Part shown: in pieces, positions 16,807 through 58,664 of the stretch
How the letters are laid out: every line of letters starts with the position of its first letter
How positions within the stretch are numbered: position 1 is the stretch's first letter
Assembly: GCA_963977275.1 (NCBI GenBank)
Contig: CAXBNX010000010.1
Location: 58,962-122,961, forward strand
Direction of reading: 5' to 3'
Source: an uncultured Haliea sp.
GTDB lineage: Bacteria > Pseudomonadota > Gammaproteobacteria > Pseudomonadales > Halieaceae
DNA: 64,000 bases
Translations under genes and position numbers: made by a program
Notes under the pieces: model-generated
What the model saw: only the letters and a program-made list of their open reading frames with translations
Database searches by the model: none
What the model was told of the DNA's origin: nothing

Positions 16807-16892
16807 CCGGTAGTTCCATTGTTTAGTGAAAGGGTATCAAGGATATTTTTTGGGGTCAAGGCGGGTTGAGCCTATGTCCATTTGAATGTCTT

Positions 16893-17207: not shown

Positions 17208-17215
17208 CGAGACCC

Positions 17216-18283: not shown

Positions 18284-18285
18284 GG

Positions 18286-18645: not shown

Positions 18646-18680
18646 TGTTCACTCCTACCTATTAAATATATGGCAAACTC

Positions 18681-20207: not shown

Positions 20208-20239
20208 TACAATATCCTCTTCAATGCAATTATTATGTG

Positions 20240-20518: not shown

Positions 20519-20531
20519 AGTTTCCGCCCCG

Positions 20532-21530: not shown

Positions 21531-21551
21531 ATTTGCTCCTGTAAGATGATG

Positions 21552-21824: not shown

Positions 21825-21839
21825 ATCACTGTATAGATA

Positions 21840-21854
21840 GCAATATCTGTGCCA
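21840..21854 (-). promoter_or_regulatory. Sigma-54 (-24/-12) promoter of the phenol hydroxylase operon
   Basis: The minus strand reads TGGCAC-AGATA-TTGC, an exact match to the TGGCAC-N5-TTGC consensus. It lies 15 nt upstream of ATG 21824, downstream of a sigma-54 activator gene. Confidence 0.75.
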
Positions 21855-22201
21855 GAGCCTGTTTGCTGTTATGTGGTGACCTGAACCCAGGGGAGTTTTT
21901 GCGCTGGTAAAAGGGCACAACGGTCATGGGGTAGGGCAAAAAAAAGCATTATTATTTCTATAAAAAACAATTGGATAGGGTGTTTTTCCTATAGGCGTAC
22001 AGCGACTACTCTGTAAAGACCGGCTGGGGTTGGGAAGCGATGAAGGTATTAATGTGTTGCGAAATGATTAGCGTTTTCTCAAGGTGTGGCTATGTCTAAA
22101 AGAGTAAGGTTTGTTTTTTTTTAATCAAATGATAAAGCCCCGGTCTTCGCCCTCCCGGTCAGTTCGAGCGCAGGGCTCTCCAATCGCCAGATGTCTGGTC
22201 T

Positions 22202-23029: not shown

Positions 23030-23041
23030 CACGGCGATTTC

Positions 23042-24748
23042 CTAATTGGCACTTGGGGCTTGCAGCTTGGCGAGACGGTAGGCGAAGGCAGGCCGGGAAA
23101 GGCCTAAAAGCCGGGCTGCCTTTGACACGTTATCCCCGGCAAGTGTCATGGCTTTTTGTACCAACACCGACTCCACATCGTCCATAGAGATAGATTGACT
23201 GAATATGGTGTCGGCCCAGGAGTCGGGCTCCCTATTCTTTATCGGGTCGGTACTGGCTTGCGCCAATCCGGCAATATCGGTGTCGACCTGGATGGCATTT
23301 TCCTCACCCGCGCCCGGCAGTACGGAATCAAGCGTTATGCGCTGATTCTCCTCTGTCAATATCACGCCACGTTCAACGGCGTTTTCGAGTTCGCGTATAT
23401 TGCCGGGCCACTGGTGATGTAAGAGCTGATTTATGGCTCTATCAGAGAGGCCCAGCGTCTTTTTCGTATAGAGAGACTCATACTTTTTAACAAAAAAACT
23501 GACCAATAGGGGGATGTCGTCGAGTCGCTCGCGCAGGGGGGGAATATGCAGTGGAAAGACGTTGAGGCGGTAGTAGAGGTCTGCTCTAAACTTCCGCGAT
23601 TTTACCGCATCTTCCAGGTTCTCATTAGTGGCGGCGATTATGCGCACATCTACACGGCGAGTTTTTGTGCCGCCGACAGGTTCGAATTCATGTTCCTGCA
23701 ATACCCGAAGCAGGCTTGCCTGGGCGCGCGCGGACAGCTCGACCACTTCATCAAGAAAAATGGTGCCCTTATCGGCGCGCTCGAAACGGCCCTGCCGGGA
23801 ATGGGTTGCCCCCGTGTAAGCGCCTTTCTCGACACCGAATAGCTCTGCTTCCAGTAGTTCCTGTGGGATGGCGGCACAATTAATCGCGACAAATGCCTGG
23901 TCGGATCGCTCACTGTGCAGGTGAATTCCCTTCGCGATCATCTCCTTGCCTACCCCAGTTTCACCCGTTAGTAAGACAGAGGCTTTAGAGGAGGCCACCT
24001 TGTTAGCCAGGCTGCAGGTCGTTTTGAAGACTCTCGATTCGCCCACAAGCGTGGAAAATATGCCTTCATCATCTTCGCCGGATACGCCCAGTGCAACCTG
24101 TGCTTGTACGCTATAAAGGGTATCCAGCAAGGAATCCGAACGGGAAAAAATTTGATAGTCTTCAGCGTTGTCCCACTCCGCCAGAGACTTGCCTATGATG
24201 CGACATTCATTGTCGCCCTGGCCGCGGCACGAAACTTCCTTAAATAAAATATCGAAGCCCATGATGTTGGAGCCAAAGCCGCAGGCGTAACCGAGCAGAT
24301 TCCAGCACACCGGCCAGTCAAGCACACCCTTTTCCGCCAGGGAAATATCGACCTCGTAGGAGTCAATCCAGATATGCTCCATCAGGAAATGCCCCCGCGC
24401 GGGATCCAGTTCGAGCACCAGGGGTTCTACCTGGACCATGCCGCGCAGCATGTGCAATTGCGGTCCGGCAAGGAATAAGTCCTTGATGCTTGCACCGGGT
24501 CTGGACTTGCGAGCAAGCTCGGCATCCACTTTGCCATTCCTGTACCCGGCGCGCATGTACAGGCCCCGGGCTCTTTCGGTCCCTATCGATTGAATAATCT
24601 CGTGCCGTGAACTGGACAGGGCCGGGATTGTTTGCAGGACACAGCGCTGTTCATCAAGCCAGATTTTGCCCTGTTCCGGGCTGAAGTGTACATGCCGGGC
24701 TAAATCTGAGGCGTTTGGAAACTCTATGGCGGTCTGTTTCTTTTGCAT
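23042..24748 (-). CDS. dmpR: Sigma-54-dependent transcriptional activator, XylR/DmpR (NtrC) family
   Basis: Has an XylR_N/V4R-like sensor N-terminus, Walker A GETGVGKE, the GAYTGA loop and a C-terminal Fis-type HTH. ATG 24748 is preferred over TTG 24772. Confidence 0.9.
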   Translation of the reverse strand: MQKKQTAIEFPNASDLARHVHFSPEQGKIWLDEQRCVLQTIPALSSSRHEIIQSIGTERARGLYMRAGYRNGKVDAELARKSRPGASIKDLFLAGPQLHMLRGMVQVEPLVLELDPARGHFLMEHIWIDSYEVDISLAEKGVLDWPVCWNLLGYACGFGSNIMGFDILFKEVSCRGQGDNECRIIGKSLAEWDNAEDYQIFSRSDSLLDTLYSVQAQVALGVSGEDDEGIFSTLVGESRVFKTTCSLANKVASSKASVLLTGETGVGKEMIAKGIHLHSERSDQAFVAINCAAIPQELLEAELFGVEKGAYTGATHSRQGRFERADKGTIFLDEVVELSARAQASLLRVLQEHEFEPVGGTKTRRVDVRIIAATNENLEDAVKSRKFRADLYYRLNVFPLHIPPLRERLDDIPLLVSFFVKKYESLYTKKTLGLSDRAINQLLHHQWPGNIRELENAVERGVILTEENQRITLDSVLPGAGEENAIQVDTDIAGLAQASTDPIKNREPDSWADTIFSQSISMDDVESVLVQKAMTLAGDNVSKAARLLGLSRPAFAYRLAKLQAPSAN

Positions 24749-24794
24749 ACGGTCTTTAAGTATCACGTGCAAATTATTATGATTTTTACTATAT

Positions 24795-39546: not shown

Positions 39547-40206
39547 TCACTCGTCCGGTTTTTCCGAGAGAATTTGTCCGGTGATTTCGGCCGTGCGGCG
39601 AATGTGTTGTTCATTGGCTGCACAAAGCGCCTTGGTATCCTTGGCCAGGGCTGCGTTAAAGATAGCGGTGTGCTCCTCGTGAACGTTGCGCCGGCTGGAG
39701 CGATCTATCCTGGCGATATTGCGGTAGCGCTTGTGCTGGTCATAGAGGATCTCGTGGAAGCGCATCAGCCAGACGGAGTCGCAACAGGAAACCAGTGCCA
39801 GGTGAAACTCCCGATTGCGGGTTTCCCATTCCTGGATATCCGGAGAGTCCTGGCTCTCTGCCTTGGTCAGGTGATGAAAGGCGGCGACAACCCGGGACTC
39901 CCACTCGTCGTTACTGTTCCCGGTACTTTCGGTCAATGCCATGCCTTCCAACACTACCCGTAAATTGGTGATGTCTTCCAGTTCCTCCAGTGACATATCC
40001 GCTACCCGGAAGCCGCGCTGGCCCTGTACCTGTACGAACCCGTCCGCGCTCAGCTGGTAAAGTGCCTCGCGCAATGGGGTGGCGCCTACTTCGTAGGTCT
40101 GCTTCAGGAATTCAATGCGTAATTTACTGCCCGGCGGGTATTTCCCGTGAATGATATCTTCCCGCAGGCGCCGGTAGGCCTGGTCTGTCAGCGTTTTTGA
40201 TTCCAT
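39547..40206 (-). CDS. GntR-family (FadR/FCD subfamily) transcriptional regulator
   Basis: Has an N-terminal winged HTH (YRRLREDIIHGKYPPGSKLRIEFLKQTYEVGATPLREALYQL) followed by an all-helical C-domain. Confidence 0.85.
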   Translation of the reverse strand: MESKTLTDQAYRRLREDIIHGKYPPGSKLRIEFLKQTYEVGATPLREALYQLSADGFVQVQGQRGFRVADMSLEELEDITNLRVVLEGMALTESTGNSNDEWESRVVAAFHHLTKAESQDSPDIQEWETRNREFHLALVSCCDSVWLMRFHEILYDQHKRYRNIARIDRSSRRNVHEEHTAIFNAALAKDTKALCAANEQHIRRTAEITGQILSEKPDE

Positions 40207-40272: not shown

Positions 40273-40288
40273 CTAAAAATATCGATAA
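40273..40288. promoter_or_regulatory. CTAAAAATATCGATAA box upstream of the GntR gene
   Basis: This 16-mer is identical to 46253-46268. It contains the palindromic core TATCGATA and lies 67 nt upstream of the GntR start. Confidence 0.5.
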
Positions 40289-41692: not shown

Positions 41693-41914
41693 ATGCCGAT
41701 CATCCAGATGAATATGATGGAAAATCGTACCGCTGCGCAAAAGCAGGAGCTGGCGCGCAGAGTATGTGAAGCTGTTTGCCAGGTACTCGATGCGAAACCG
41801 GAATCGGTCCGCATCATGATTCATGAGCTTGGCCCCCACGATTTCTCTGTTGGTGGTGTGACTATGGCAGAACGCAAAAGTGGCAAAGAGGACGGGGTTC
41901 CTGGCAATGACTAA
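41693..41914 (+). CDS. dmpI: 4-oxalocrotonate tautomerase
   Basis: Starts MPIIQ. By my count Pro1, Arg11, Arg39 and Phe50 are all present. Confidence 0.85.
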
Positions 41915-42832
41915 AATCCCCTGTGCCCTTATAGGCTCCGGCAATATTGGTACCGATTTACTGTTCAAGCTGCAGCGAAGTGACATTCTTGACCCCGTCT
42001 GGATGGTGGGTATTGACCCAAAGTCAGAGGGCCTCGCGATTGCCCGCAAAATGGGTTTGAAAACTACCCACGAGGGAATCGATGCGGTGCTGCCGCAGCT
42101 GGGTGAGGATGGCGTCCAGATAGCCTTCGACGCGACCTCTGCGTATGCCCACGCCGAGAATTCCAGAAAAGTAAACGAGCAGGGGGTGTATATGATCGAC
42201 CTGACTCCCGCCGCAATCGGTCCGCTGTGTGTGCCCCCGTCAATCTTCGAGCTCTCGGGCAGACAATGAACGTCAACATGATCTCCTGTGCGGGGCAGGC
42301 CACTATTCCGATAGTGCATGCGGTGAGTCGCATCCAGGCGGTGGATTACGCCGAAATAATCGCCAGCCTCGCTTCGCTCTCCATTGGCCCCGGCACCCGC
42401 GCTAATCTCGACGAATTCACCTATACGACTTCCAACGCCATTTGCGAGGTGGGAGGTGCCCGCCGTGGCAAGGCACTGGCGGTGATCAACCCTGCGGCCC
42501 CGCCGATGATCATGCGCAATATTATTTATTGCCTGACCGATCAGCTGCCCGACCAGAGCAGCATTACGGAATCTGTCATGTCCATGATCGCAGAGGTTCA
42601 GCGTTACGTACCGGGGTACAAACTGGTCAATGGTCCGGTATTCGAGGGTAACAAGGTGGCGGTGTTCATGGAGGTAGCAGGCCGGGGTGACTATTTGCCG
42701 AGCTACGCAGGCAATCTCGATATTATGACAGCCGCGGCATGTCGCACAGCGGAAATGATTGCTGAAGGCTCACTCATGCGCAGGGCGGAAAGTACTGTCT
42801 TTCGATCAGTTTCGTCGGGAGAGGCCCGATGA
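41907..42832 (+). pseudogene. dmpF: Acetaldehyde dehydrogenase (acylating), disrupted by a frameshift at a C5 run
   Basis: The N-part ([18 protein letters not shown]...[10 protein letters not shown]) and the C-part ([24 protein letters not shown]...[10 protein letters not shown]) lie in different frames. They join at CCCCC 42234-42238. Confidence 0.8.
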
Positions 42833-43602
42833 GCGAGCAAAGCTTAAAGGGTCGAAAAGTACTATTGCACGACATGTGTTTACGCGATGGCATGCATGCT
42901 AAACGCGAACAGATTTCCACTGAGGAAATGGTCAATGTTGCCCGCGAACTCGGGATGGATACCTCCGGCTTTCTCATGATGGCGCATCTGAATACTGCCG
43001 AGGGCCTGCTGGCCGAAGCAAGGAAGATGGAGTCCTACGGCGCGAACACGGTTTATGTCACTGATTCAGCTGGTTACATGTTGCCTGGCGATGTGAAGAG
43101 CGTGGTTGCCCTCCTGCGTGAGAATCTCCTAGAGAAAACAGAGCTTGGCTTTCACGGTCACAATAACATGGGTATGGCGATAGCGAATTCGATAGCGGCA
43201 ATTGAAGCGGGAGCATCCCGGATCGATGCTTCTGTCGGCGGCCTCGGTGCCGGCGCCGGTAACACCCCTTCCGAGGTGTTTGTCGCAGTGTGCGATCGCA
43301 TGGGTATCGAAACCGGTTGCGACCTGTTCAAACTGATGGATATGGCCGAGGACATCATCTTGCCGATGATGGAGCATGTCGTGCGGGTAGACCGCTCATC
43401 TCTCACCATGGGCTATGCTGGTGTGTACTCAACTTTCTTGTTACACGCCAACCGCATCGGCAGCAAGTATGGCATTGCTACCCGGGACATCCTGGTCGAA
43501 CTGGGGCAACGGAAAATGATTGGTGGCCAGGAGGATATGATAGAGGATACGGCACTGACAATGGCAAAAGCACGAGGCATTAATGTCGCGGTTGCCGACT
43601 AG
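42829..43602 (+). CDS. dmpG: 4-hydroxy-2-oxovalerate aldolase homologue with a large internal in-frame deletion (probably non-functional)
   Basis: LRDGMHA, the HGHNN metal site and the C-terminal communication domain are present. The protein is 257 aa, against about 340-345 aa for the family. AREL is joined directly to [10 protein letters not shown]. Confidence 0.75.
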
Positions 43603-46220: not shown

Positions 46221-46324
46221 TTTATCGATATTAATATTAAATTATATATAAACTAAAAATATCGATAAAAACTTGTGAATCACGTATGCATACACTATCG
46301 TTGAAATGTCGAAATATCGATAAA
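46221..46324. promoter_or_regulatory. Array of three AATATCGATAAA boxes between the promoter and the second catechol dioxygenase gene
   Basis: The three 12-mers are identical: 46223-46234 (inverted orientation), 46258-46269 and 46313-46324. The middle copy shares 16 nt with the box upstream of the GntR gene. Confidence 0.55.
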
Positions 46325-46376: not shown

Positions 46377-47303
46377 ATGAGAAAAGGTGTAATGCGTCCA
46401 GGGCACGTCCAGATTCGGGTGTTGGACCTGGATGAAGCGATCGTGCACTACAGGGACCGGCTGGGGTTGATAGAAGTTAATCGCGATAGCCAGAACCGGG
46501 CGTATTTCAAGGGCTGGACCGAAATTGATTCGTTCTCGGTCGTACTGCGAGAAGCCGACGAGCCGGGAATGGACTTTATGGGCTTCAAAGTTACCTCGGT
46601 GGATACCCTGGAGCAACGCAAGCAGGATCTGATTGCCTACGGCTGTGAAGTTGAAACTATCCCTGCGGGAGAGTTGGAGGGCTGTGGCGAGCGGGTGCGT
46701 TTCGCCTTGCCGACCGGTCATTACTTCGAGCTTTACGCAGAAAAAGACCAACCCGGTAAATGGGGTATCCATGAGAAGAATCCGGAGGCCTGGCCGGAGG
46801 GGCTAAAGGGCATGAGGGCCACACGCTTCGATCATTGCCTGCTGTACGGTGACGACATCGATGGCACTGCCGACCTGCTGGAAAAAGTGCTGGGCTTCCA
46901 GATGTCTGAGCAGGTCGTAGACAAGGACAGCGGTTCACTAGAGGCGGCCTTTATGAGTCTCTCTATGAAGGCCCACGATGTGGCTTTTGTGCGGTACCCC
47001 GAAAAAGGTAAGTTTCACCACGCCTCGTTTTTCCTTGAAAGCTGGCAGGACGTGTTGCGTGCGGCGGATCTCATTTCCATGCACGATATGCCACTGGACC
47101 TCGGGCCTACCCGTCACGGCCTCACCCACGGCCAGACCATCTATTTCTTTGACCCCTCTGGTAACCGCACGGAAGTTTTCTGTGGCGGCGATTACACCTA
47201 CCCGGACCATCCGGTGGTGACCTGGGATGCCGACATGATCGGCAAAGCTATTTTCTACCATGATCGCGTACTCAACGAGAATTTCATGGGTGTAGTGACC
47301 TGA
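46377..47303 (+). CDS. dmpB: Catechol 2,3-dioxygenase, XylE-like
   Basis: [17 protein letters not shown]...[16 protein letters not shown]...AHDVAF...[25 protein letters not shown] closely resembles XylE as I remember it. TAGGAG RBS is present. Confidence 0.95.
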
Positions 47304-47337: not shown

Positions 47338-48798
47338 ATGAAAGAAGTAAAAAACTTTATTAACGGTGAGTACTGCAACTCCTCAAGCGGCAGTACCTTC
47401 GACAATATAGACCCGTGTACGGGCGCGTTGATTGGCACGGTGCACGAGGCAGCCCAAGAGGATGTGAACGCGGCAGTTCAAGCGGCTCGCGATGCGCTCA
47501 AGGGGCCCTGGGGCAGCATGAGCGATGAGGAACGTGGCGCTCTGCTGCATGCGGTTGCCGACGGCATTGATCGTCGCTTTGACGAGTTCCTCGCTGCCGA
47601 GTGTGCCGATACTGGCAAGCCCTACAATATTGCCAGTCATATTGATATTCCACGTGGCGCGGCAAACTTCCGGGTTTTCGCCGACGCTGTAAAGAATTTT
47701 GCGACCGAAGCCTTTCAGATGCCCACTCCGGACGGTAACGGTGCATTCAATATTGCGCTGCGCAAGCCCAAGGGCGTGATCGCGGTGGTTAGCCCCTGGA
47801 ATCTCCCCCTGCTGCTGATGACCTGGAAAGTTGGGCCAGCCCTCGCCTGTGGCAACACCGTGGTGGTGAAGCCTTCTGAAGAAACACCCACGACCACGTC
47901 CCTGCTGGGAGAGGTGATGAATGAGGTGGGTGTGCCACCTGGTGTGTTCAATGTGGTGAATGGCTTCGGGCCGAACTCTGCAGGCGCATTTCTAACCGAG
48001 CACCCTGGGGTCGATGCAATTACGTTTACAGGGGAAACTCGTACAGGTGAAATTATTACGCAGGCTGCGGCAAAGGGTCTGCGCGATGTTTCCATGGAAT
48101 GCGGCGGGAAAAACCCGGCATTGGTTTTTGCAGATTGCGACATGGATAAGGCGATAGAAGGCACTCTGCGTTCAGTTTTTTCCAACTGCGGGCAGGTGTG
48201 TCTGGGTACCGAGCGGGTCTATGTGGAACGGCCGATTTTTGAAGAGTTCGTTTCCCGCCTCGCCACTGAGGCGGCGAATTTTACCCTGGGGCTACCGGAA
48301 GACAAGGCGACTGATATGGGTCCGCTGGTTTCTGCAGAGCACCAGCGAAAAGTGCTTTCCTATTATGAGTTGGCCGTAGCGGAAGGCGCCACAGTGGTAT
48401 TGGGTGGCGGCATTCCCAAAATGCCGGCTGAACTGGCAGGCGGAGCCTGGGTGCAGCCCACAATTTGGACAGGGTTGAAAGACGACGCCCGTGTGATCAA
48501 TGAGGAGATCTTTGGTCCCTGTTGTCATATTCGTCCCTTTGACACCGAGGACGAGGTGATCGCCCTGGCCAATGATACGCCCTACGGTCTCGCGGCCACG
48601 CTCTGGACTGAGAACATGTCGCGCGCGCTGCGTGTTGCCCCGCAAATCGAGTGCGGAATTTGCTGGGTTAATAGTTGGTTCCTGCGCGACTTGCGCACGG
48701 CATTCGGCGGTGCCAAGGAGTCGGGTATGGGCCGTGAAGGCGGTGAGCACTCGCTGGAGTTTTATACAGAATTGCAGAACGTCTGCATCAAAATCTGA
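47338..48798 (+). CDS. dmpC: 2-hydroxymuconic semialdehyde dehydrogenase (NAD+ aldehyde dehydrogenase family)
   Basis: 486 aa. Has the ALDH motifs ECGGKNP (Glu) and FSNCGQVCLGTER (Cys), and sits directly after the dioxygenase gene. Confidence 0.9.
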   Translation: MKEVKNFINGEYCNSSSGSTFDNIDPCTGALIGTVHEAAQEDVNAAVQAARDALKGPWGSMSDEERGALLHAVADGIDRRFDEFLAAECADTGKPYNIASHIDIPRGAANFRVFADAVKNFATEAFQMPTPDGNGAFNIALRKPKGVIAVVSPWNLPLLLMTWKVGPALACGNTVVVKPSEETPTTTSLLGEVMNEVGVPPGVFNVVNGFGPNSAGAFLTEHPGVDAITFTGETRTGEIITQAAAKGLRDVSMECGGKNPALVFADCDMDKAIEGTLRSVFSNCGQVCLGTERVYVERPIFEEFVSRLATEAANFTLGLPEDKATDMGPLVSAEHQRKVLSYYELAVAEGATVVLGGGIPKMPAELAGGAWVQPTIWTGLKDDARVINEEIFGPCCHIRPFDTEDEVIALANDTPYGLAATLWTENMSRALRVAPQIECGICWVNSWFLRDLRTAFGGAKESGMGREGGEHSLEFYTELQNVCIKI

Positions 48799-48817: not shown

Positions 48818-49609
48818 ATGAGCACACTTTCACCCGAAGTCACAGCCCAGCTGGCTGAGCACCTGGAGAACGCAGAGCTGCAGGCTTACGACGTCACCAA
48901 AATTACCGACGATTATCCCGACATGGATTACGAGGATGCTTTTAATATCCAGTGGGAAATTCGGCGCCGGAAAGTCGCTCGAGGCCACAAGATTGTCGGC
49001 ATGAAAATGGGCCTGACATCCTGGGCAAAAATGGCGCAGATGGGCGTGGAACAACCCTGCTATGGTTTTTTGGCTGATTATTTCAGCTGCCCGAATGGGG
49101 CTGCAATTGATACTTCGAAATTGATTCACCCCAAAGTAGAAGCTGAAATAGCCTTCGTTACCAAGGCTCCGCTGAAAGGCCCCGGGATTCACGTAGGTGA
49201 TGTATATGCGGCGACTGACTTTGTGCTTCCGGCAGTGGAAATCATCGACTCCCGCTATCGCGATTTCAAGTTCGACATCAAGAGTGTCATCGCCGACAAC
49301 AGCTCCTCGTCGCGTTTTGTAACCGGTGGCCGCTGCTTGCCAGTCGATCATATGGATCTGAGCACGGCGGGCGTTGTGATGGAGAAGAACGGTGAAATCG
49401 TGGAGTTGAGTACCGGGGCGGCAGTGCTGGGAAATCCGGCGGAAAGCGTCGCTATGCTGGCCAATATGCTCGGCGAACGCGGCGAGGAGATCCCTGCGGG
49501 TACGTTCATCATGACCGGGGGCGTAACGGCTGCAGTGGCCGTGGCGGCTGGTGATTCTATCACCGTGCGTTACCACGACATGGGATCTATCAACATGAGG
49601 TTTGTCTAG
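48818..49609 (+). CDS. dmpH: 4-oxalocrotonate decarboxylase (DmpH/XylI-like; 2-keto-4-pentenoate hydratase superfamily)
   Basis: 263 aa. KIVGMKMGLTSWAKMAQMGVEQPCYGFLADYF...VIADNSSSSRFVTGG resembles DmpH rather than DmpE as I remember them. Confidence 0.75.
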   Translation: MSTLSPEVTAQLAEHLENAELQAYDVTKITDDYPDMDYEDAFNIQWEIRRRKVARGHKIVGMKMGLTSWAKMAQMGVEQPCYGFLADYFSCPNGAAIDTSKLIHPKVEAEIAFVTKAPLKGPGIHVGDVYAATDFVLPAVEIIDSRYRDFKFDIKSVIADNSSSSRFVTGGRCLPVDHMDLSTAGVVMEKNGEIVELSTGAAVLGNPAESVAMLANMLGERGEEIPAGTFIMTGGVTAAVAVAAGDSITVRYHDMGSINMRFV

Positions 49610-49645: not shown

Positions 49646-50650
49646 ATGAAAAATACGATAATGAACCTGCTCAACAGTAAATTGCACTTTTCAGTAAGCG
49701 CTTGGATAGGCCGCCTCGGATTGCTTCTGTTGCCGCTGGTGCTGGCGGGATGTGAGGCGCCACTTAATCTCGATCAGGTAGTGGCTGAAGGAGCCAAGAC
49801 AGTGCGGCGCTACGACATGTTTCAGGCTGTCGCTGAGGCCGGTAATCGTGTGGTCGTGGTAAGTTCCGTGGGTGCAGCCCTGGTGTCTGATGATAAAGGT
49901 GTCAACTGGGAGCGCTACGAATTGTCCGGACGGCCTTCGCTCATCGATGTGACAGCCTGCGACAACGGCGACTTCTTTGCGCTGGATAGCCAGCATCGCG
50001 TTTGGCAGCTTCCCGCTGCAGGCAGCCAGTGGGTTTCCTCTACTATCGATACACTCGAGAATACGCTTGCTATCGAGTGCGCGCCGGGGAATCGTCTTTG
50101 GGTATCCGCTAGTTTTAGTACGCTTTATTCACGTGATCTGCAGTCTCAGGAGTGGCAGGAGTTCAGCCTGAGTGAAGACCTGCAATTTACCTCTGTCAAA
50201 TTTGTAGACGAGCTCAATGGCTATGCAGTAGGGGAGTTCGGCACTGTCTTGTCTACCACAGACGGTGGTGAGAACTGGTCAGCAATGGAGTCCTTACCCA
50301 ATGAATTTTATCCGATGGCGGCGGATTTTCTCGATGCCACCACGGGTTGGATAGGCGGCCTTGATGGCGTGATATGGCAAACCGAAGACGGCGGCATGAG
50401 CTGGCAACGCCAGGAAACCCTGAACGCCTCGCCAATCTACAACATCCAGGCAGGTAGCCATGGCATCTACGCTTCCGGTGGCAGCGCCAAACTCGTTGAA
50501 TTCTCCCACGGTCGCTGGCAGAAAATGGCGGATGCGCCCGAGGTGCTCACGTATATCCGCGGTCTGGCAGTGCTGTCGGATGGGTCATTATTGGTTGCCG
50601 GGGGTGGCGGTACCCTCGCCGTTGTCCCGGCTGATCACACCGACTCTTGA
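49646..50650 (+). CDS. Ycf48/BNR-repeat beta-propeller lipoprotein
   Basis: Has the lipobox LVLAGC and Asp-box repeats DKGVNWE, DGGENWS and DGGMSWQ. ATG 49646 is preferred over GTG 49634. Confidence 0.75.
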   Translation: MKNTIMNLLNSKLHFSVSAWIGRLGLLLLPLVLAGCEAPLNLDQVVAEGAKTVRRYDMFQAVAEAGNRVVVVSSVGAALVSDDKGVNWERYELSGRPSLIDVTACDNGDFFALDSQHRVWQLPAAGSQWVSSTIDTLENTLAIECAPGNRLWVSASFSTLYSRDLQSQEWQEFSLSEDLQFTSVKFVDELNGYAVGEFGTVLSTTDGGENWSAMESLPNEFYPMAADFLDATTGWIGGLDGVIWQTEDGGMSWQRQETLNASPIYNIQAGSHGIYASGGSAKLVEFSHGRWQKMADAPEVLTYIRGLAVLSDGSLLVAGGGGTLAVVPADHTDS

Positions 50651-50676
50651 TAATTTAACAATACAGGTAAGCGATA

Positions 50677-53049
50677 GTGAAAAAGGAAGGTTTGGTAAGT
50701 GCTTTTTTTGGCAAATTGGAGCGGGTTGTCTTCTATCATCCGAAGACATTTCTCGCTGTAATTTTGCTGATAACCGCATTTTTTGCCAGCCGTATCCCCT
50801 ATCTGCAAATGTATTCCAACTTTGGCGACCTGCTACCGCAGGAACACCCCTACATCCAGCTTCACAATGATGTGAAGGACACCTTTGGTGGCGCCAATAA
50901 CGTGGTTCTGTCGGTGTCGGTGAGTGAGGGTGATATTTTCAACACAGATACCCTCGCTCGCATTCACCGATTGACCCAGGGAGTGGACTCCTTACCGGGG
51001 GTGAACCACAACCTTGTACGCAGCTTGACTCATCGCACGGTGCGTAAGACATGGATGACTGAGTTGGGGAATATGAATTCCTAGGCATATTACGATCCTC
51101 TGCATCCCGATCTTTCAGACGAGCAGTTAGCTCAGCTTAAGCTGGATGTTATGGCCAATCCGACCGTCTATGGCCTGCTGGTTTCTCCCGACCTGAAGTC
51201 CGCGATGATAAAAGCGACTTTTGTCGAGGGGCAGCTAGATTACGCGGCGATCTTTCGGCAGCTGGGGGACCTTAAGAATACGGTGCAGGAGCTGAGAGCG
51301 TCCGAGTCTGCGCCCGGGATACAAATTTACGCCACAGGCCAGCCTGTGCTGATGGGCTGGGTGTACAGCTACCTGGGCCAGATATTCCAGATATTCTTTC
51401 TAACCCTGGCTATTTTGCTGGCGCTTCTGCTTGCCTATTTTCGCACCCGGGGCTACGGCATTGTCCTTCCGATGGTGGGAGTATTGGTTTCCGCCACCTG
51501 GGGCCTGGGTATTGTTTCGCTGCTCGGTTACAACCTCGATCCGCTCACCCTGGTTATCCCTTTCCTGATTTCTGCCCGGGCGATGTCGCATGGCATCCAG
51601 TTGGTAGAGCGATACTATATGGAGATCCCGAACGCCAAGGATAATCACGATGCGGCGCGCCGAACGTTTGAGTCGCTGTTCCGCCCTGGCACCCTGGGTA
51701 TTGTCTCGGACGCCATTGGCCTGCTGCTGATATCACTCGGGTCTTCACCTATTAATGTAAAACTGGGTATATACGCATCTATCTGGGCAGGCAGTGTTGT
51801 TATCACGGTGCTGATGACCGTGCCACTTATTCTTTCCATGCTGCCCTTGAGTCAACTCAGCGAAAAGCAGATGAAGCAGGGCGGCGGCGTATTCGATATG
51901 ACGGCGAAATTTGTCTCTGGCCGTAGCGGTTCACTGGCGATACTGATTTTCGCCCTGCTCGTTTATATCGGCGGCGGCCTGCTGAGTTCTAAGGTTCAGG
52001 TGGGTGAGTCGGAGCCCGGCTCTCCCATTCTCTACCCCGATCACGATTACAACGTGTCCTCAAAGAGCATCAATCTGAATTTCCCCGGTTCAGAAGAGAT
52101 GTATGTGGTGGCCACAACCAGTGAGCCAGGTGGTATCAAGCGGCCAGAAGTCTTGCACGCGTTGCAGGATTTCCAGATACATATGCTGCAGGACCCCGAT
52201 ATGGGAGGCAGCAAGGGTATTCCGGATCTGGTAAAGCAGGTAAACCAGATTCTTCACAACGATGATCCACGCTGGGCGGTTATCCCCGATGAGGCGAGTT
52301 ATGTTGGCGGCCTGATGTTTGCTTTTATGGCTTCAAGCCCCATCCCGGGCGCTCTCAAGGAATTTATCGACACAGACGAACAGTCGGCCAATCTGGTGTT
52401 TTTCTACAAGGATCATCAGGGTGAGACGCTGCGTCGAGCCATCTATATGGCAAAGCAGTGGATAGATGATCCTGCGAATCAGGTAGAGGGTCTGGAGTTG
52501 CGCCTCGCAGGGGGGCCTATAGGGGTCACCGCGGCAATTAATGAATCAGCCTTTCAAAGCAACATAGTCATTATCCCGGCAGCCATGGTACTTATCTTTT
52601 TGTTTGTCACAGTGTTCTATTCCTCGCTGCACGCGGGCTGGCTGATGTTGCTTGTTATGACGTTTTGCACGGTTGCCACTTACGCTTATATGGGAGTCGT
52701 GGGTATCGGTATCGACGTGAACACCGTTCCAATTATTGCCGTTGGCATCGGTGTGGGAATTGATTATTCCATTTATATGATGGATCGCATCAAAGAGGTC
52801 ACTTCAAGCTCTGGTGGTGACCTTCAGCTAGGTATTCGTACCGCCATCGCGACTACAGGAAAGGCTATAGGTTTTACTGCTACTGCGCTGATTGGCGGGA
52901 TTGTGATGTGGGCCTTCGTCTCCGATCTCCGATTCCAGGCGGATGCTGCGCTGCTGTTGGTTGTAATGCTGATACTGAATGCCTGGGCGGCGGTCAACCT
53001 GGTGCCGGCCTGGGTTGTGAGGTTCAAACCGAAGTTTATTGTGAGCTGA
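50677..53049 (+). pseudogene. RND/MMPL-type inner-membrane permease interrupted by one in-frame TAG (51082-51084)
   Basis: The track ORFs 50677-51084 and 51151-53049 share one frame, with only a single stop between them. Together they give about 790 codons and two 6-TM bundles. Confidence 0.75.
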
Positions 53050-53169
53050 ATATGCAGTGAAAGACCTATGTCGCCAGGCGATAGTGCCTGGAGTAGGCGG
53101 CCCGATTTGAGAGTAATTTTAATAAAAAGTAGTTTGGATTGTTGTAAGTAACCCAAGAGGGGAAAACCC

Positions 53170-55143
53170 ATGATAAAGATAAGTAGAACATTAAGTGTAA
53201 TGGGAGCGGCGACATTACTTGCCGGCTTTTACCCACTCATTGCTTCCGCCCAGGATGACGAATGGGATACTGCAGGTTTTGTGGAGAATGCGAGCTATTA
53301 CCGCGACGGACCGGGTTTGTCCAAATTCCGCAATACCGGCCAGTTCGAGTTCAGCAAAGATTTTGGCGATAACTTTGGTCTGACTAATTTTCGCGTCTCT
53401 GGTACTTTGCGTGCGACTTATGAAGGTGTGTATGACCTCAACGACGGCCAGTATGGCGACGACGCCGGGGGTTCGCGCAAATTCCAGAACTTCAACAGTA
53501 CCAACGCTGAGATAATTTATGGGGGCAACGGAGATTCGCCCTGGGGACAATCGATTCTCGGAGCCGGCGTCGGCCCAGGATTTGGCTTTGATTTGGCGAC
53601 AAATCCAAACCATGGCCTGCACGTGCTCGGTGAAGATTTCCACAGCCCGGATGGTGGTGTCACCATTGGTGTGCCGGTACAGCCCTGTGACAAGGATAAT
53701 CGCGGCTGTGGATTGAAAGATATATACATGAACAACAGCCTCAATGATCTGCGTTTTCCGGAGTTTAACGATAACCACGACTATATCCGCGAGCTGTACG
53801 TTGAAGGCAGTATTCCATTTGGAAGTAGGTCTGAACTGTTCCTGAGGGTCGGCAAGCAGCAAGTGGTTTGGGGTCGTACCGATCTGTTCCGCGTGCTGGA
53901 TATCATCAACCCGGTGGATTACTCGCGTCAGAATATCTATGACGAGTTGGAGGATATCCGCATTCCCGAGTGGATCGCCACCGCAGAGTATCGCATGGGC
54001 GCTACGGGTATCTTTGACGACCTCAACGTGCAACTGGTGTGGAACTTTGACAAGTTCAGTCCGAGCAATCTCGGGCAGGGTGGAATGCCCTACTCAATTC
54101 TGGATGCCAGCTCCTTCTTTCGTGGTATGAATAACTGCTGGGAAAATGGTTGTACCGTATCAAACTTTGTACCGGCCCAGGCACTAATTGCTGCAGGTGC
54201 ACCATTGCCAGACCCTGACGACCCCGGCCTGGTTGCAGCTGATTTCGGTCCGGGCGTTATCGGTATTCGCCAGGCCAATACGCCTGACTGGGAATTGGGG
54301 AATACCCAGGGAGGCATCAAACTGGAGGGTGTCTATAACTCCGTGGGCTTCTCTCTGAACTACTATCACTATTTCCAGCAGTTACCTTCATTGCATGGTG
54401 GTATAGAGGCGATGAACCCGTTTACCGGCGAAGTTGGAACATGGGATTATCTTATTGCCTTTGATATTGAGTATCCGGAAGTGGACTTGTTTGGTGGTTC
54501 GTTGGACTTTGATATCGATGCAATCTCAACAGTCTTTCGGGTTGAGGCGACTTATACAACCGGCGAAGAGTTCTCTAATACGCTGGACCCGAAATTGTAT
54601 TCCGAATCCGATATGTTCCGCTGGGTGCTGGGGGTAGACCGCAGTACGTTTATCCCGTTTCTTAACAAAACCCGCGCCTTCCTGATTTCTGCTCAGGTGT
54701 TCGGCGAGCACATGCTCGATCACGAACTGGAGAGGGGGCCGCTGGGCAACGTTGGTATCCCGAACTGGGAGGACAATTACACGGCGACATTGCTGATCAA
54801 AGGTTGGTACAAGTCCGACACCATCAGCCCGCAGATCATTACTGCCTGGGATCACCAGGCGAAGGCCGGTACATTCGCACCCTCGGTAGACTGGCTGGTC
54901 AATGACAACTGGCGCGTAATATTTGGGGCCAGCATCAAATTTGGTGATGGTATGGAGGACCAGAAGTTCGATGATTGTCGTACCTGTAACCCGTTCCCTC
55001 CATTCACTGCCTCGCCGGGCCAGACGCAGCCGGGGTCTCTGGGATTAGGTGGAATTGAGCCTCTGGGGCGCTTCCGTGCAGGGCCGCTGGCCAGTGCCAG
55101 TCAGGAAGACGAAATTCAGCTCACAGTACGCTACCGTTTCTAG
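53170..55143 (+). CDS. DUF1302-family outer-membrane beta-barrel protein
   Basis: Has a signal peptide (...LIASAQDD) and is rich in Gly, aromatic and Asp/Asn residues. The C-terminus ...LTVRYRF is typical of OM barrels. The family assignment is from memory. Confidence 0.65.
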   Translation: MIKISRTLSVMGAATLLAGFYPLIASAQDDEWDTAGFVENASYYRDGPGLSKFRNTGQFEFSKDFGDNFGLTNFRVSGTLRATYEGVYDLNDGQYGDDAGGSRKFQNFNSTNAEIIYGGNGDSPWGQSILGAGVGPGFGFDLATNPNHGLHVLGEDFHSPDGGVTIGVPVQPCDKDNRGCGLKDIYMNNSLNDLRFPEFNDNHDYIRELYVEGSIPFGSRSELFLRVGKQQVVWGRTDLFRVLDIINPVDYSRQNIYDELEDIRIPEWIATAEYRMGATGIFDDLNVQLVWNFDKFSPSNLGQGGMPYSILDASSFFRGMNNCWENGCTVSNFVPAQALIAAGAPLPDPDDPGLVAADFGPGVIGIRQANTPDWELGNTQGGIKLEGVYNSVGFSLNYYHYFQQLPSLHGGIEAMNPFTGEVGTWDYLIAFDIEYPEVDLFGGSLDFDIDAISTVFRVEATYTTGEEFSNTLDPKLYSESDMFRWVLGVDRSTFIPFLNKTRAFLISAQVFGEHMLDHELERGPLGNVGIPNWEDNYTATLLIKGWYKSDTISPQIITAWDHQAKAGTFAPSVDWLVNDNWRVIFGASIKFGDGMEDQKFDDCRTCNPFPPFTASPGQTQPGSLGLGGIEPLGRFRAGPLASASQEDEIQLTVRYRF

Positions 55144-55170
55144 TTTTTAGAATAATCAGGAGTACGAGAT

Positions 55171-56481
55171 ATGTTAAAACGAAGAATTGCAAGCGTCGCC
55201 CTGGCGACAGCTGTAACTGCTGGGGTCGCCTATGCGGGCAACCCTGAAGATGTGGAAACATCTTTCTATCCCTACAAGGACTCAGTTCCCGCCTTTGAAG
55301 GGTTGACTGTAGGAATGACAATAAACGCGACCAATGTTGACCAATTCAAGAGCATTCTGGACGCCGCAACCTATGAGCAGATCAAGAATGGTTGGTGGGA
55401 AATGACAGTGGGTGAAACCACCTCGTATGATCTGCATCCCAACTATGTAGAGGCTACCCGCAAAGGAGCGGCGCAGGTTTCTCTGGGTGAAGAGCTGGGT
55501 GAGATCAACGGCTTTGTTGCTGGCAGGCCCTTCCCGCAAGAGCCCGATCTAAATGATCCTCGTGCTGGTGAAAAGCTGGCCTGGAACTACAAGTATGGCT
55601 ACAACTGGGGCGACAGCGCCGCGATCTATCCGTTCTACTGGAGGTACCGCGACCTGGAGTCTGGCAAAATCGAGCGGACGCTTAAGTTTAACTTCCATTT
55701 TCTGAACTTCATGCACCGCGTAATACAAGATCCGGTACCCGAATTTGCCGACAATCCCTCAGAGATATTCAGGGCTATCTATGTACAGGTACTGGAGCCA
55801 TTCGACGTAAAAAATACCCAGCTGTTGATCTACCGCGCCGAGGACGATCTGAAGCAGGACGATACCTGGCTGTACCTGGGCTTCCAGCGCCGGGTCCGTC
55901 GCCTTTCGTCCGGCCAGATAACAGATGCGTTTCTGGGTGCAGATCTTATGATCGAGGATTTCGAAGGTTACAATGGTCGAATTTCTGACATGAACTGGAC
56001 CTATAAGGGCACCAAGAACCTGCTACTGCCTTTCTTCAATCACAATGATATGCCATTGGCCACGGACTTTGAAGAAAGTGATGGGTATCAGTTTATAGAT
56101 TTCGGTGGCAAGGGTGGCTGCTTCCCAAATATTACCTGGCAGCTTCGCAAGGTATATGAGCTTGAATCTGATCCTATCGATGACAATCATCCGATCAGTA
56201 AGCGAGTGCACTATGTGGATGCCCAGACCTTCACTCTGCCTAGAACCCTGATTTACGATCGCAAGGGCGACCTGTGGAAGTCATGGTTAATCGGACAGGC
56301 TCACCCCGATCATCATATGGAGAAAAATAAGGGTAGTGGCGTGGCCATTGATGATGCCTTTTCCATGCTCGATGTACAGGCGGGACACTGCACCACGGGC
56401 CAGTTCAAAGGCCAGGTGGATGCTGAACTGAATCCGATCAAGTTGTTTTCGGTACAGAATATGCGGGCGAAAGGTCGGTAA
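55171..56481 (+). CDS. DUF1329-family periplasmic (LolA-like) protein
   Basis: Has a signal peptide (...GVAYAG). It is 436 aa and sits in the usual position next to a DUF1302 gene. The family assignment is from memory. Confidence 0.65.
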   Translation: MLKRRIASVALATAVTAGVAYAGNPEDVETSFYPYKDSVPAFEGLTVGMTINATNVDQFKSILDAATYEQIKNGWWEMTVGETTSYDLHPNYVEATRKGAAQVSLGEELGEINGFVAGRPFPQEPDLNDPRAGEKLAWNYKYGYNWGDSAAIYPFYWRYRDLESGKIERTLKFNFHFLNFMHRVIQDPVPEFADNPSEIFRAIYVQVLEPFDVKNTQLLIYRAEDDLKQDDTWLYLGFQRRVRRLSSGQITDAFLGADLMIEDFEGYNGRISDMNWTYKGTKNLLLPFFNHNDMPLATDFEESDGYQFIDFGGKGGCFPNITWQLRKVYELESDPIDDNHPISKRVHYVDAQTFTLPRTLIYDRKGDLWKSWLIGQAHPDHHMEKNKGSGVAIDDAFSMLDVQAGHCTTGQFKGQVDAELNPIKLFSVQNMRAKGR

Positions 56482-56496: not shown

Positions 56497-56537
56497 GCCA
56501 GCACCGGGCCATCGCGGTCGGGTGTTGGCTTTTTTTT
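56497..56537 (+). terminator. Rho-independent terminator after the DUF1329 gene
   Basis: Stem GCCAGCACC...GGTGTTGGC (9 bp with one G:U pair) followed by a T8 run. Confidence 0.7.
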
Positions 56538-56549: not shown

Positions 56550-57143
56550 ATGTGTGAACCAGTTGATGTTAAGTTGTTTTTTAATTTTCGAAGTCCTTAT
56601 TGCTATATCGCTTCGAAAACGCTGTTTGCGATATTTGATGAATTCCATACAAATCTGATCTGGCGTCCATTGGGAGGGTGGTCCGGTCGCTCCTCACCTG
56701 AACGAGCCAAGGTCAAGGTGCCACTTACGCGGCAGGACGTACGACGTATTACCGCAAAAATGGGTATTCCGATGACTCCGCCGCCGCTGACTACTGAGCC
56801 GACTAAAGCGGCTGCAGCGTCATTGTTGGCCGAGGAGCGAAATTTGCTGCGGCCCTGGATTGTCGAGGTAATGCGTGCCGAATGGGCCGGTGGCCTGGAT
56901 ATCGGTGATGAACAGGTGTTGCTCGAGGTTGGCGAAAAAGTGGGACTGGAGGCGGCGGAATTGCAGGCTGCCTTCAACGATGAAGCCAAACTGTCACAAC
57001 TGGACAAGAACTGGGAGGAAGCTCAGGAACTGGGTCTGATCGGCGTGCCCAGTTTCCAGATTGGTGATGAATTGTTCTGGGGCAGTGACCGAATTCAGTA
57101 CGTTAAGGATTTTTTAAGAGACCTGCGTGTGAGCAGGTTATAG
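56550..57143 (+). CDS. DsbA-fold 2-hydroxychromene-2-carboxylate isomerase-family protein
   Basis: Has the N-terminus KLFFNFRSPYCYIAS and the C-terminus GVPSFQIGDELFWGSDR, both typical of the HCCA isomerase / kappa-GST-like family. Confidence 0.8.
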   Translation: MCEPVDVKLFFNFRSPYCYIASKTLFAIFDEFHTNLIWRPLGGWSGRSSPERAKVKVPLTRQDVRRITAKMGIPMTPPPLTTEPTKAAAASLLAEERNLLRPWIVEVMRAEWAGGLDIGDEQVLLEVGEKVGLEAAELQAAFNDEAKLSQLDKNWEEAQELGLIGVPSFQIGDELFWGSDRIQYVKDFLRDLRVSRL

Positions 57144-57162: not shown

Positions 57163-57474
57163 ATGCTGGAACTTTATACACACCCGATGTCCCACTGTGC
57201 GCAAAAAGTGCGCATTGTTTTGGCCGAGAAAGGTCTGGATTGGACCAAGCACCAGGTCAGCCTTCCCGACAAGGAAAACCTGCAGCCTGAGTATCTCAAG
57301 CTCAACCCGCTGGGTGTGGTACCGACGCTGGTGCATGAGCGGCGGCCCATTATTGAGTCGAGTATTATCTGTGAATACCTGGAAGACACTTACCCGGAGG
57401 CGTTGTTGGCCGATTTGCAGGGGAGGGGTGAGGAGGCCTGGAAGAAAGTCGAGATGTATCTGGACAAGATATGA
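57163..57474 (+). CDS. Stand-alone GST N-terminal (thioredoxin-like) domain protein, probably a truncated GST
   Basis: 103 aa. ...VVPTLVHERRPIIESSIICEYLED is a GST_N domain, and no C-terminal helical domain follows. It overlaps the next GST gene by ATGA. Confidence 0.6.
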   Translation: MLELYTHPMSHCAQKVRIVLAEKGLDWTKHQVSLPDKENLQPEYLKLNPLGVVPTLVHERRPIIESSIICEYLEDTYPEALLADLQGRGEEAWKKVEMYLDKI

Positions 57475-58091
57475 TTACACTGTATGAACGCACGGATTGC
57501 CCGTTCTGCTGGAAAGTGCGCCTGGCCCTGGCTGAGCTGGATCTGGAATATGAGGCGGTGGCAACCCGGTTGGGTGAAAAGCACCCTGAACTGGCTCGCC
57601 TGAGCCCGACGGGAACCGTACCTGTCCTGGTTGATGGCGATACAGTTATCTGGGAATCTGCGGTGATTCTTGAGTATCTGGCTGGACGTTATTCACCGGG
57701 CTCGCTATTTCCCGGTGATGCGGCCGAGCAGGCCAGGATTCGATTACTGCATGCCTACTCGGACAAGATTGTGGGCAGTTGCCTGCGTGAGCTGGTCTTC
57801 GAGCGGCGCTCGAAACCTGAGCCTGAATGGGATCAAGGCATTATTCAGGCCAGTCAACGGAAGTGGCGAGACTGTCAGGTCCGACTGGAGCAGGAGCTGG
57901 GTGAAGCGCTTTTTTTTGGCGCATGCTTTACTGCGGCAGACTGCGCCCTGGCAGCGCGTTTTGGCGTGGCGGAAGCCTATGGAGCCGGTGTGACCGCAGC
58001 GTTTCCGCGCTTGCAACAATGGTATGCAGCACTGGTCGAAAGGCCGAGCTGGCAGGCCGCTTACCCCGACTCTTTTATCAGAACAAACTAA
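57471..58091 (+). CDS. Glutathione S-transferase / glutaredoxin-2-like (CPFC motif)
   Basis: LYERTDCPFCWKVRLAL...TVPVLVDGDTVIWESAVILEYL is followed by a full C-terminal domain. Confidence 0.8.
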   Translation: MITLYERTDCPFCWKVRLALAELDLEYEAVATRLGEKHPELARLSPTGTVPVLVDGDTVIWESAVILEYLAGRYSPGSLFPGDAAEQARIRLLHAYSDKIVGSCLRELVFERRSKPEPEWDQGIIQASQRKWRDCQVRLEQELGEALFFGACFTAADCALAARFGVAEAYGAGVTAAFPRLQQWYAALVERPSWQAAYPDSFIRTN

Positions 58092-58097: not shown

Positions 58098-58664
58098 ATG
58101 AATGATACGTCGGGCGTCAGCTCACAACAGACACATGCCGATTCGGTAACGGTTTCCGTCGCCCGCCGTGTGAAACCCGGGCGCGAGGCCGATTACGAAC
58201 AGTGGGTGAAAGGTATTACTGCGGAAGCCTTAAACTTCCCGGGCCATATGGGGGTTAACGTAATACGACCTACTGCCGCATCGCGGGACTATGTGACAAT
58301 CTTTCGATTCGACACCCACCAGCATCAACAGGACTGGGAAGCATCACAGGCGCGTGCAAACTGGCTGGCGCGCCTGGATGGCATCGTCGAGGGGGAGGGC
58401 AGTGTTAAGCGAGGTACCGGGCTTGAGTTCTGGTTCAGCTTGCCGGAATTGCCAACCTCACAGCCGTCACCTCATAAAATGGCATTGGTTCTGTTTGTTG
58501 TGGTGTCTGTTCTGGTCCTTTTACTTAACGTGATATTGTCCCCGCTGGTGGCGGATTGGCCCTATTTCTTTAAAGTCATACTGGCTGTTTTTCTGCAGGT
58601 GACACTCATGACCTATCTGGTTATGCCCCGGGTGACTCGCTTGCTGAAATCCTGGTTGTTTTGA
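58098..58664 (+). CDS. ABM (antibiotic-biosynthesis-monooxygenase-like) domain protein with a C-terminal membrane anchor
   Basis: Has a ferredoxin-like ABM pattern (VTVSVARRVKPGREADYEQW...YVTIFRFDT). Two hydrophobic helices lie at the C-terminus. Confidence 0.55.
   Translation: MNDTSGVSSQQTHADSVTVSVARRVKPGREADYEQWVKGITAEALNFPGHMGVNVIRPTAASRDYVTIFRFDTHQHQQDWEASQARANWLARLDGIVEGEGSVKRGTGLEFWFSLPELPTSQPSPHKMALVLFVVVSVLVLLLNVILSPLVADWPYFFKVILAVFLQVTLMTYLVMPRVTRLLKSWLF

Follow-up and report, generated by a model that had tools for sequence, protein, structure and literature searches.

A DUF1302/DUF1329/Ycf48-like/HAE3 gene quartet linked to phenol and catechol catabolism, and its amber-interrupted permease gene in an uncultured Haliea

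Why should four genes for envelope proteins stand directly behind genes for catechol meta-cleavage? The question is raised by a stretch of 64,000 nucleotides from an uncultured Haliea sp. (contig CAXBNX010000010.1, positions 58,962 to 122,961; hereafter the window), in which dmpB, dmpC and dmpH are followed by genes for a Ycf48-like BNR propeller lipoprotein, an RND permease, a DUF1302 outer-membrane barrel and a DUF1329 periplasmic protein (hereafter the quartet). We give a probability of roughly 55% to the reading that such a quartet is an AmeABCD-type proton-driven system, which would carry hydrophobic molecules from one side of the periplasm to the other, between inner membrane and outer-membrane barrel (outward, in the direction that we favour), and would be co-induced with phenol and catechol degradation. 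What is new here is an amber codon in the permease gene of the window, the quantified association of one orthologous group of quartets with dmp clusters, and two regulatory arrangements by which the quartet is coupled to them. The genes and signals in question are as follows, all on the plus strand.

46377..47303, plus strand: dmpB, catechol 2,3-dioxygenase (TIGR03211 equivalog, 2.1e-128), first gene of the putative operon
47338..48798, plus strand: dmpC, 2-hydroxymuconic semialdehyde dehydrogenase (TIGR03216 equivalog, 8.8e-260)
48818..49609, plus strand: dmpH, 2-oxo-3-hexenedioate (4-oxalocrotonate) decarboxylase (TIGR03218 equivalog, 2.2e-140)
49646..50650, plus strand: Ycf48-like BNR beta-propeller lipoprotein, AmeC / PP_2018 type (Pfam PSII_BNR, 1e-14)
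50677..53049, plus strand: HAE3/MMPL-type RND permease, AmeD / PP_2019 type, amber-interrupted (Pfam MMPL, 4.8e-23)
51082..51084, plus strand: premature TAG at RND codon 136, in periplasmic loop 1 (direct reading and comparison with orthologues)
53170..55143, plus strand: DUF1302 outer-membrane beta-barrel, AmeA / PP_0765 type (Pfam DUF1302, 9.5e-43)
55171..56481, plus strand: DUF1329 periplasmic LolA-like protein, AmeB / PP_0766 type (Pfam DUF1329, 1.5e-74; LolA_like, 2.2e-16)
56497..56537, plus strand: intrinsic terminator, a hairpin of 9+4 base pairs and then U8 (folding)

How widely is this gene order kept, and in what company? Scanning a single genome for each species gave 80 loci whose DUF1329 protein is 51-96% identical to that of the window, and the proteins of the window were mapped onto them with tblastn (loci and contigs of the comparison carry L numbers below). 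Among named genomes the nearest is a metagenome-assembled genome (MAG) of an uncultured Haliea, with 96% identity in DUF1329, and the relatives at the family level are Halieaceae. The order BNR-RND-DUF1302-DUF1329 is complete in 60 of the 80 loci, and of the 20 incomplete ones, 18 run into the end of a contig. Loci were taken as informative if their quartet is complete and is preceded by 4 kb or more of sequence; there are 55 of these, and as markers we counted in their flanks dmpL/N of phenol hydroxylase, dmpB/C/H/F/G of meta cleavage, or a DmpR homologue. Such neighbourhood statistics had been put forward in an earlier, sequence-only reading of this DNA as the way to check a link to aromatic catabolism, and they come out clearly on its side, with markers at 52 of the 55 loci. 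This enrichment is very large, since the markers make up about 1% of a genome by a rough, uncomputed estimate. Of the three exceptions, L017 even has a DmpP-like reductase gene directly upstream of the quartet and box-pathway-like genes downstream (PaaA_PaaC, enoyl-CoA hydratase and ferredoxin-reductase domains).

The quartet is coupled to phenol and catechol genes in two different ways. In the first arrangement, seen in Halieaceae (L005, L006, L009, L010, L012, L014, L079) and in other gammaproteobacterial MAGs (L015, L016), the quartet follows dmpH directly at a distance of 40-128 nucleotides, with no sigma-54 motif, and is itself followed by a DsbA-like gene and glutathione S-transferase (GST) genes. 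In relatives outside the lineage of the window, intact dmpE, dmpF and dmpG come next after the DsbA-like and GST genes, and the quartet therefore lies inside the meta pathway there. At ten loci (L005-L010, L014-L016, L079) a hairpin plus T-run stands behind DUF1329, its sequence varying from locus to locus. In the second arrangement, found in Marinobacter, Pseudomonas, Halopseudomonas, Neptuniibacter, Pontibacterium and others, the quartet has a promoter of its own: at 39 of the 60 loci with a complete quartet, a near-consensus sigma-54 site, TGGCAC-N5-TTGCT, lies 40-168 nucleotides ahead of the start of the BNR gene, about 0.03 being expected per locus. Immediately upstream of this promoter, the loci of Marinobacter, Pseudomonas and Halopseudomonas carry a gene for a DmpR-like activator, from which a phenol-hydroxylase operon diverges; the three adjacent activators that were examined all have XylR_N, V4R and Sigma54 domains. 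Two independent couplings of the same four genes to phenol and catechol genes argue for a real functional link. The window belongs to the first arrangement, and no sigma-54 promoter stands in it before dmpB or before the BNR gene.

The second arrangement also travels on a plasmid. In Pseudomonas veronii from a site contaminated with aniline, a conjugative IncP phenol plasmid is annotated with this layout, its YCF48 and DUF1329 genes being consistent with the order of the quartet. A more distant quartet, with DUF1329 31% identical, occurs in the same gene order on plasmid 2 of Aromatoleum aromaticum EbN1 (L087, 214006-220512); this plasmid, whose host degrades aromatics anaerobically, is conjugative, and its quartet sits among beta-oxidation-like genes. 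As a separate observation, the sister Haliea MAG contains a second quartet (L032), which is of Marinobacter type, 68% identical, and accompanied by a DmpR-like gene and a sigma-54 motif. An additional DUF1329 paralogue, about 44-45% identical, stands after the ABM gene described below in some Halieaceae (L006, 17279-18640; L014, about 16670-17839).

Within the window, the layout given by the sequence-only reading holds on re-examination. The four co-directional open reading frames (ORFs) after dmpH are separated by the same gaps (36, 26, 120 and 27 nucleotides), the names of dmpB, dmpC and dmpH agree with equivalog-level NCBIfam matches, and the terminator after the fourth gene folds, with its hairpin and U8, at -26.8 kcal/mol (z = -2.95); a consensus scan skips it solely for a loop longer than 8 nucleotides. 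Neither the 36-nucleotide spacer between dmpH and BNR nor the 120-nucleotide spacer between RND and DUF1302 shows structure beyond that of shuffled controls. The proposal that the quartet is the distal part of the dmpB-dmpC-dmpH unit is strengthened by the fusion to dmpH, which is kept in at least seven species-level Halieaceae genomes and two other MAGs. Thus, in this lineage the four genes look like a tail that is transcribed with the dmpB-dmpC-dmpH operon, as judged from gene order.

What kinds of proteins are they? The first one has the lipobox LVLAGC and three Asp-boxes (SDDKGVNW, TTDGGENW and TEDGGMSW), both features having been recognized in the translation before, and the same start is called in contig L001, a close relative of the window. 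Ycf48 chains in the PDB match it at 3.7e-17 by sequence search. With the Ycf48/HCF136 equivalog model, it scores 63.8 bits, far below the cut-off of 326, and the context of its gene is an RND operon without photosynthesis genes; the protein is, by sequence, clearly a propeller homologue and probably not a functional member of the photosystem II assembly factors. The second protein matches TIGR00921 (HAE3) at 2.4e-34, under the trusted cut-off of that model, and its hydropathy fits a layout of 1+5/1+5 transmembrane (TM) helices with two large periplasmic loops. Profile search gives weak matches to the HpnN and MmpL3 models, and sequence search against the PDB gives only weak, NPC1-like matches. 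TM10 in its second half (52720-52790) keeps the typical motif GIGVGIDYSIY, while TM4 in the first half (51550-51640) reads ARAMSHG in place of the usual G-x-x-x-D and has no Asp; this asymmetry is present in all the orthologues inspected.

The third and fourth proteins were likewise assigned correctly at first sight: the translation of the DUF1302 gene shows a signal peptide and ends in ...TVRYRF, that of the DUF1329 gene shows a signal peptide too, and the Pfam matches listed above agree with both. The AlphaFold2 model of the DUF1302 protein is a large barrel (pLDDT 83.5, pTM 0.83), for which Foldseek returns just generic outer-membrane barrels (AlgE, porins, TonB-dependent receptors) at query-normalised TM-scores of 0.36 or less; a sequence search found no relative of it in the PDB. 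The model of the DUF1329 protein is less confident (pLDDT 65.9), and its best PDB matches are 4z48, which is a DUF1329 crystal structure, LolA3, 3bk5 and other LolA or RseB folds. The likeness to the Lol lipoprotein-sorting system stops at this LolA-like fold, since the partner here is an RND protein and there is no ABC transporter at the locus.

One claim on the permease has to be divided. Its RND/MMPL-type family stands, while the intact gene of about 790 codons assumed in the sequence-only reading does not: an in-frame TAG at codon 136, overlooked there, splits the gene into ORFs of 135 and 632 amino acids. Metagenome contig L001, which is 99.45% identical to the window over 12.2 kb without gaps, has CAG (Gln) at this codon and an intact RND gene of 790 amino acids, so that the two differ at the codon by a single C-to-T transition. 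Among 63 orthologous RND genes, the window copy is the only one with an internal stop, and the column otherwise holds E, Q, A or K. Is the TAG simply an artefact of sequencing? An independent Logan assembly from another run (L004) has the identical split into 135 and 632 amino acids, which makes a one-off assembly error unlikely. The nonsense codon is directly demonstrated, as are the gene content, the synteny and the promoter motifs. To judge from the sequence, the permease copy in the window is most likely non-functional and pseudogene-like, because re-initiation at Met159 would yield a protein lacking TM1, and the whole quartet in this genome is probably a pseudogenised copy.

The surroundings of the quartet also bear lesions. 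Downstream of the terminator, Pfam matches name the following genes.

56550-57143, plus strand: DsbA-like protein
57163-57474, plus strand: truncated GST
57471-58091, plus strand: GST
58098-58664, plus strand: ABM-domain protein of 188 amino acids with a hydrophobic C-terminal tail

Halieaceae, and several other loci, likewise have the DsbA-GST pair behind the quartet. In the window, the first GST has an in-frame deletion of 483 nucleotides compared with L001, L002 and L005, leaving 103 instead of 264 amino acids with the C-terminal GST domain gone; the junction lies near 57390-57399 and is bordered by 10 nucleotides of microhomology, and the identity to L001 falls there from 99.45% to 97.35%. 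An ABM-domain gene comes after the quartet in 35 of 73 loci, and in 18 of these 35 (17 of Marinobacter, and L032) it starts 70-123 nucleotides after DUF1329; its product may be a fifth component of the module. Upstream, at 40.5-45.9 kb, there are a LysR gene, remnants of dmpI/F/G, a second extradiol dioxygenase, an SDR and a tautomerase, and an AT-rich region of 500 nucleotides separates them from dmpB-dmpC-dmpH and the quartet. An exact-match look-up of the second catechol 2,3-dioxygenase-like protein gave no match. Here dmpF lies in two pieces in different frames (41880-42269 and 42227-42832), dmpG (42829-43602, 257 amino acids) is short of about 90 N-proximal residues when compared with the intact genes of L006, and contig L003 has both lesions too. 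Since a dmpE homologue is also missing within the window, the lower meta pathway looks decayed here. Farther away, on the minus strand, lies a multicomponent phenol-hydroxylase operon (about 17.2-21.8 kb, in a region of 17216-24772), preceded by the only perfect sigma-54 promoter of the window, TGGCACAGATATTGCT (21839-21854, minus strand), and a DmpD-like hydrolase and a DmpR/XylR-type activator are encoded at 22.2-24.8 kb.

If there is no sigma-54 promoter before dmpB, what could control it? An operator-like motif, found by motif count, is repeated upstream of this gene.

46223-46231, minus strand: ATATCGATA
46259-46267: ATATCGATA
46314-46322: ATATCGATA

The window has six exact copies of ATATCGATA against 0.31 expected, and the core AAATATCGATAAAA is invariant among seven aligned Halieaceae regions upstream of dmpB; the motifs at this place do not vary between genera of the family. 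One further copy, at 40279-40287, lies 73 nucleotides upstream of a gene for a GntR/FCD regulator (39547-40206, minus strand). Because the motif stands before both, the pattern suggests that this regulator autoregulates and also controls the operon of dmpB and the quartet.

It is to be noted that neither the module nor the idea of its function is new. The sequence-only reading called the four genes uncharacterised and without defined function, and this was an overstatement, since deletion phenotypes of AmeABCD, cofitness of the four families and a conduit model by AlphaFold have all been published. The trans-envelope conduit for hydrophobic or aromatic compounds that it proposed is likewise already in the literature, together with the link to hydrophobic and aromatic catabolism. 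A literature search found no paper joining Ycf48, phenol hydroxylase and RND. The nearest known system is AmeABCD of Castellaniella defragrans 65Phen, which lies inside a monoterpene island, is induced by the substrate and was termed a tetrapartite HAE3 exporter by its authors; deletion of ameABCD lowers monoterpene tolerance and raises accumulation of Nile Red (PMC6394551). It consists of a DUF1302 protein, a LolA-like DUF1329 protein, a COG4447/Ycf48-like protein and an HAE3 RND protein of about 790 amino acids, and the first three families are all recognized here; the permease here fits the fourth in family and topology, but its window copy is interrupted at codon 136, the orthologue in L001 being intact. 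In both cases, four adjacent co-directional genes lie in a catabolic island, there for a toxic hydrophobic carbon source. They differ in that the gene pairs are swapped (DUF1302-DUF1329-BNR-RND for ameA-B-C-D against BNR-RND-DUF1302-DUF1329 here), in that we deal here with a gammaproteobacterial Halieaceae and with phenol/catechol meta-cleavage instead of anaerobic degradation of monoterpenes, and in the nonsense codon of the present permease.

The same four families occur in quartets of Shewanella amazonensis (Sama_1588-1591), P. stutzeri and P. putida (PP_0765/PP_0766 and PP_2018/PP_2019), for which genetic cofitness and co-folding by AlphaFold support a single machine (10.1101/072470; 10.1101/2020.07.04.188060; PMC10866462). 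The four were found to be cofit in Shewanella, Kangiella and Pseudomonas by Price et al., who also remarked on DUF1329 genes in aromatic clusters (10.1101/072470); complexes of DUF1302-DUF1329 and of DUF1329-BNR-RND were predicted by AlphaFold in the Foldy paper (PMC10866462), and ECLIPSE describes an 18-stranded barrel with an ipTM of 0.84 for DUF1302-DUF1329 (PMC13499233). These quartets are housekeeping-like or linked to fatty esters, often split in two pairs, and accompanied by LuxR-type regulators, unlike the orthologous group of the window, which is linked to dmp genes and DmpR/sigma-54 or fused to dmpBCH. Other relatives, all distant, adjoin aromatic catabolic genes as the group of the window does, and for some of them induction or high expression on aromatics is reported: the phn island of Delftia Cs1-4, where DUF1302 and DUF1329 are encoded in a phenanthrene cluster (PMC3110197), Zoogloea oleivorans with a DUF1302/DUF1329 pair within its phenol-hydroxylase cluster (PMC7012976), pipA/pipB of Thauera and the 'Nanopod' cluster of ORM2a, the last with 21% identity (PMC13101534). 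Such reports are anecdotal and mostly concern the DUF1302/DUF1329 pair alone (PMC3110197; PMC7012976; 10.1101/072470; PMC13101534). Two further candidates were dropped as relatives: AupA of the AupA/AupB alkane uptake system of Marinobacter is FadL-like, and its paper mentions neither DUF; and PahS of the Cycloclasticus pair PahS/PahP is an unrelated TonB-dependent receptor.

How might the machine work? As to assembly, substrate and direction, we infer the following. The HAE3/MMPL-type RND permease in the inner membrane would be the motor, driven by protons, with the Ycf48-like propeller lipoprotein probably bound to its periplasmic domains; hydrophobic molecules would be handed to the LolA-like DUF1329 carrier, which would dock on the DUF1302 barrel, and outward transport would relieve the loading of membranes by phenolic and aromatic substrates while these are degraded, that is, it would confer tolerance. 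Co-induction with phenol and catechol catabolism, by fusion to dmpBCH or by a sigma-54 promoter and mostly beside a DmpR/XylR-type sensor, would be the logic common to the lineages. In this proposed role, proton-driven removal of aromatic solvents near catabolic genes, the quartet resembles the solvent pumps of the HAE1 type (TtgGHI, SrpABC, AcrAB-TolC). Unlike these, it has no membrane-fusion protein and no TolC-like channel, neither an MFP nor an OEP domain being found at the locus, its permease matches MMPL only and is of the MMPL/HAE3 branch instead of ACR_tran, and it would bridge the periplasm by a soluble LolA-like carrier, where the HAE1 pumps use a continuous duct. Characterised bacterial RND transporters, the HAE3 member HpnN included, move their substrates outward, and the outward direction is favoured because of this and of the Ame phenotypes.

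Several points weigh against this reading. The 80 loci are one orthologous group picked by similarity to a protein of the window and are rich in Marinobacter, so that the counts are not phylogenetically independent, and the quartet is likened to AmeA-D by families and description, not by direct sequence comparison. Co-transcription with dmpBCH is itself inferred from the sequence, and there could be an internal promoter within the 120-nucleotide gap between RND and DUF1302. A permease whose TM4 has no usual Asp may couple energy in an atypical way. Phenol is fairly soluble in water and passes membranes, and the compounds actually moved may instead be alkylphenols, other aromatics or lipids. 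Finally, the losses of growth reported for mutants of P. putida (10.1101/2020.07.04.188060) and Delftia (as cited in PMC13101534) fit uptake equally well.

This brings up the reverse direction, which we regard as possible at a clearly lower probability: the DUF1302 barrel would admit poorly soluble aromatics, DUF1329 would ferry them, and BNR-RND would insert or receive them at the inner membrane, feeding phenol hydroxylase and the meta pathway. It would suit a quartet that is embedded in catabolic, not resistance, clusters in the 52 of 55 loci. Uptake channels, for example TodX, XylN and TbuX, are a common last element of catabolic operons. In P. putida, PP_0765/6 and PP_2018/9 are needed for growth on Tween 20 and butyl stearate (Thompson et al., 2020; 10.1101/2020.07.04.188060), a DUF1329 deletion in Delftia is cited in PMC13101534 as hampering growth on phenanthrene, and the four proteins are termed a substrate transport system in PMC10866462. 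The ameABCD mutant, on the other hand, shows normal growth on oxygenated monoterpenoids, and a co-substrate rescues it; this speaks for toxicity and not for failed uptake (PMC6394551). Nor does the barrel resemble the channels of the FadL/TodX/XylN type, which have 14 strands and an N-terminal hatch: DUF1302 is its sole Pfam match, with none to Toluene_X, FadL-type structures are absent from the top 50 Foldseek matches of its model, and the modelled barrel is much larger. Members of HAE3 and MMPL export, and we know of no RND transporter that imports. A narrower form, in which a dedicated inward shuttle under control of DmpR/sigma-54 delivers poorly soluble aromatics, or a buffer working in both directions sets the loading of the membrane, appears a little less probable still; if true, the inward shuttle would be the first RND-dependent import route.

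Could the cargo instead be a component of the envelope itself? The quartet would then export endogenous lipids or cell-wall material to the outer membrane, and its induction together with phenol catabolism would make the envelope more resistant to solvent stress; we consider this reading unlikely. HpnN, a member of HAE3, and MmpL3 are lipid exporters, and it is to their models that the permease has its weak matches; acyl chains are ligands of LolA-like folds. Export of a cell-wall component was proposed by Price et al. from pleiotropic cofitness phenotypes (10.1101/072470), and DUF1302 and DUF1329 of Delftia were found in outer-membrane and vesicle fractions, the vesicles being induced by phenanthrene (PMC3110197). 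Yet this orthologous group is nearly always beside aromatic catabolic genes and is carried on mobile catabolic plasmids, which is unusual for a housekeeping role in the envelope, and it has no linked genes for lipid biosynthesis.

That the quartet has no functional relation to the meta-cleavage genes and stands behind them by accident is very improbable. In favour of this are that co-transcription with dmpBCH is putative, that the window copy is broken, and that dmpF, dmpG and a GST nearby are damaged too; the comparative data are strongly against it, with synteny kept across genera and two independent regulatory couplings. Least probable of all, the initial hypothesis of Thompson et al. (2020) that DUF1302 and DUF1329 are esterases, drawn from a specific phenotype on fatty esters (10.1101/2020.07.04.188060), was dropped on grounds of fold, since neither protein has a hydrolase domain, their folds are those of an outer-membrane barrel and a LolA-like carrier, and PMC10866462 re-examined these P. 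putida genes and arrived at transport components.

For the window itself, caution is needed, as its pump gene is most likely a pseudogene and several catabolic genes nearby are damaged. For the family, the meaning is wider. The quartet of DUF1302, DUF1329, Ycf48-like and HAE3 proteins is widespread and biochemically still a black box, and the analysis goes beyond scattered reports in that one orthologous group turns out to be wired almost always to clusters for phenol hydroxylase and catechol meta-cleavage, and to be carried on a conjugative phenol plasmid as well. This gives the black box a clear candidate inducer and a clear candidate class of substrates, together with tractable hosts in Marinobacter and Pseudomonas veronii, and makes it relevant to strains for bioremediation and to our understanding of how degraders tolerate solvents or take them up.

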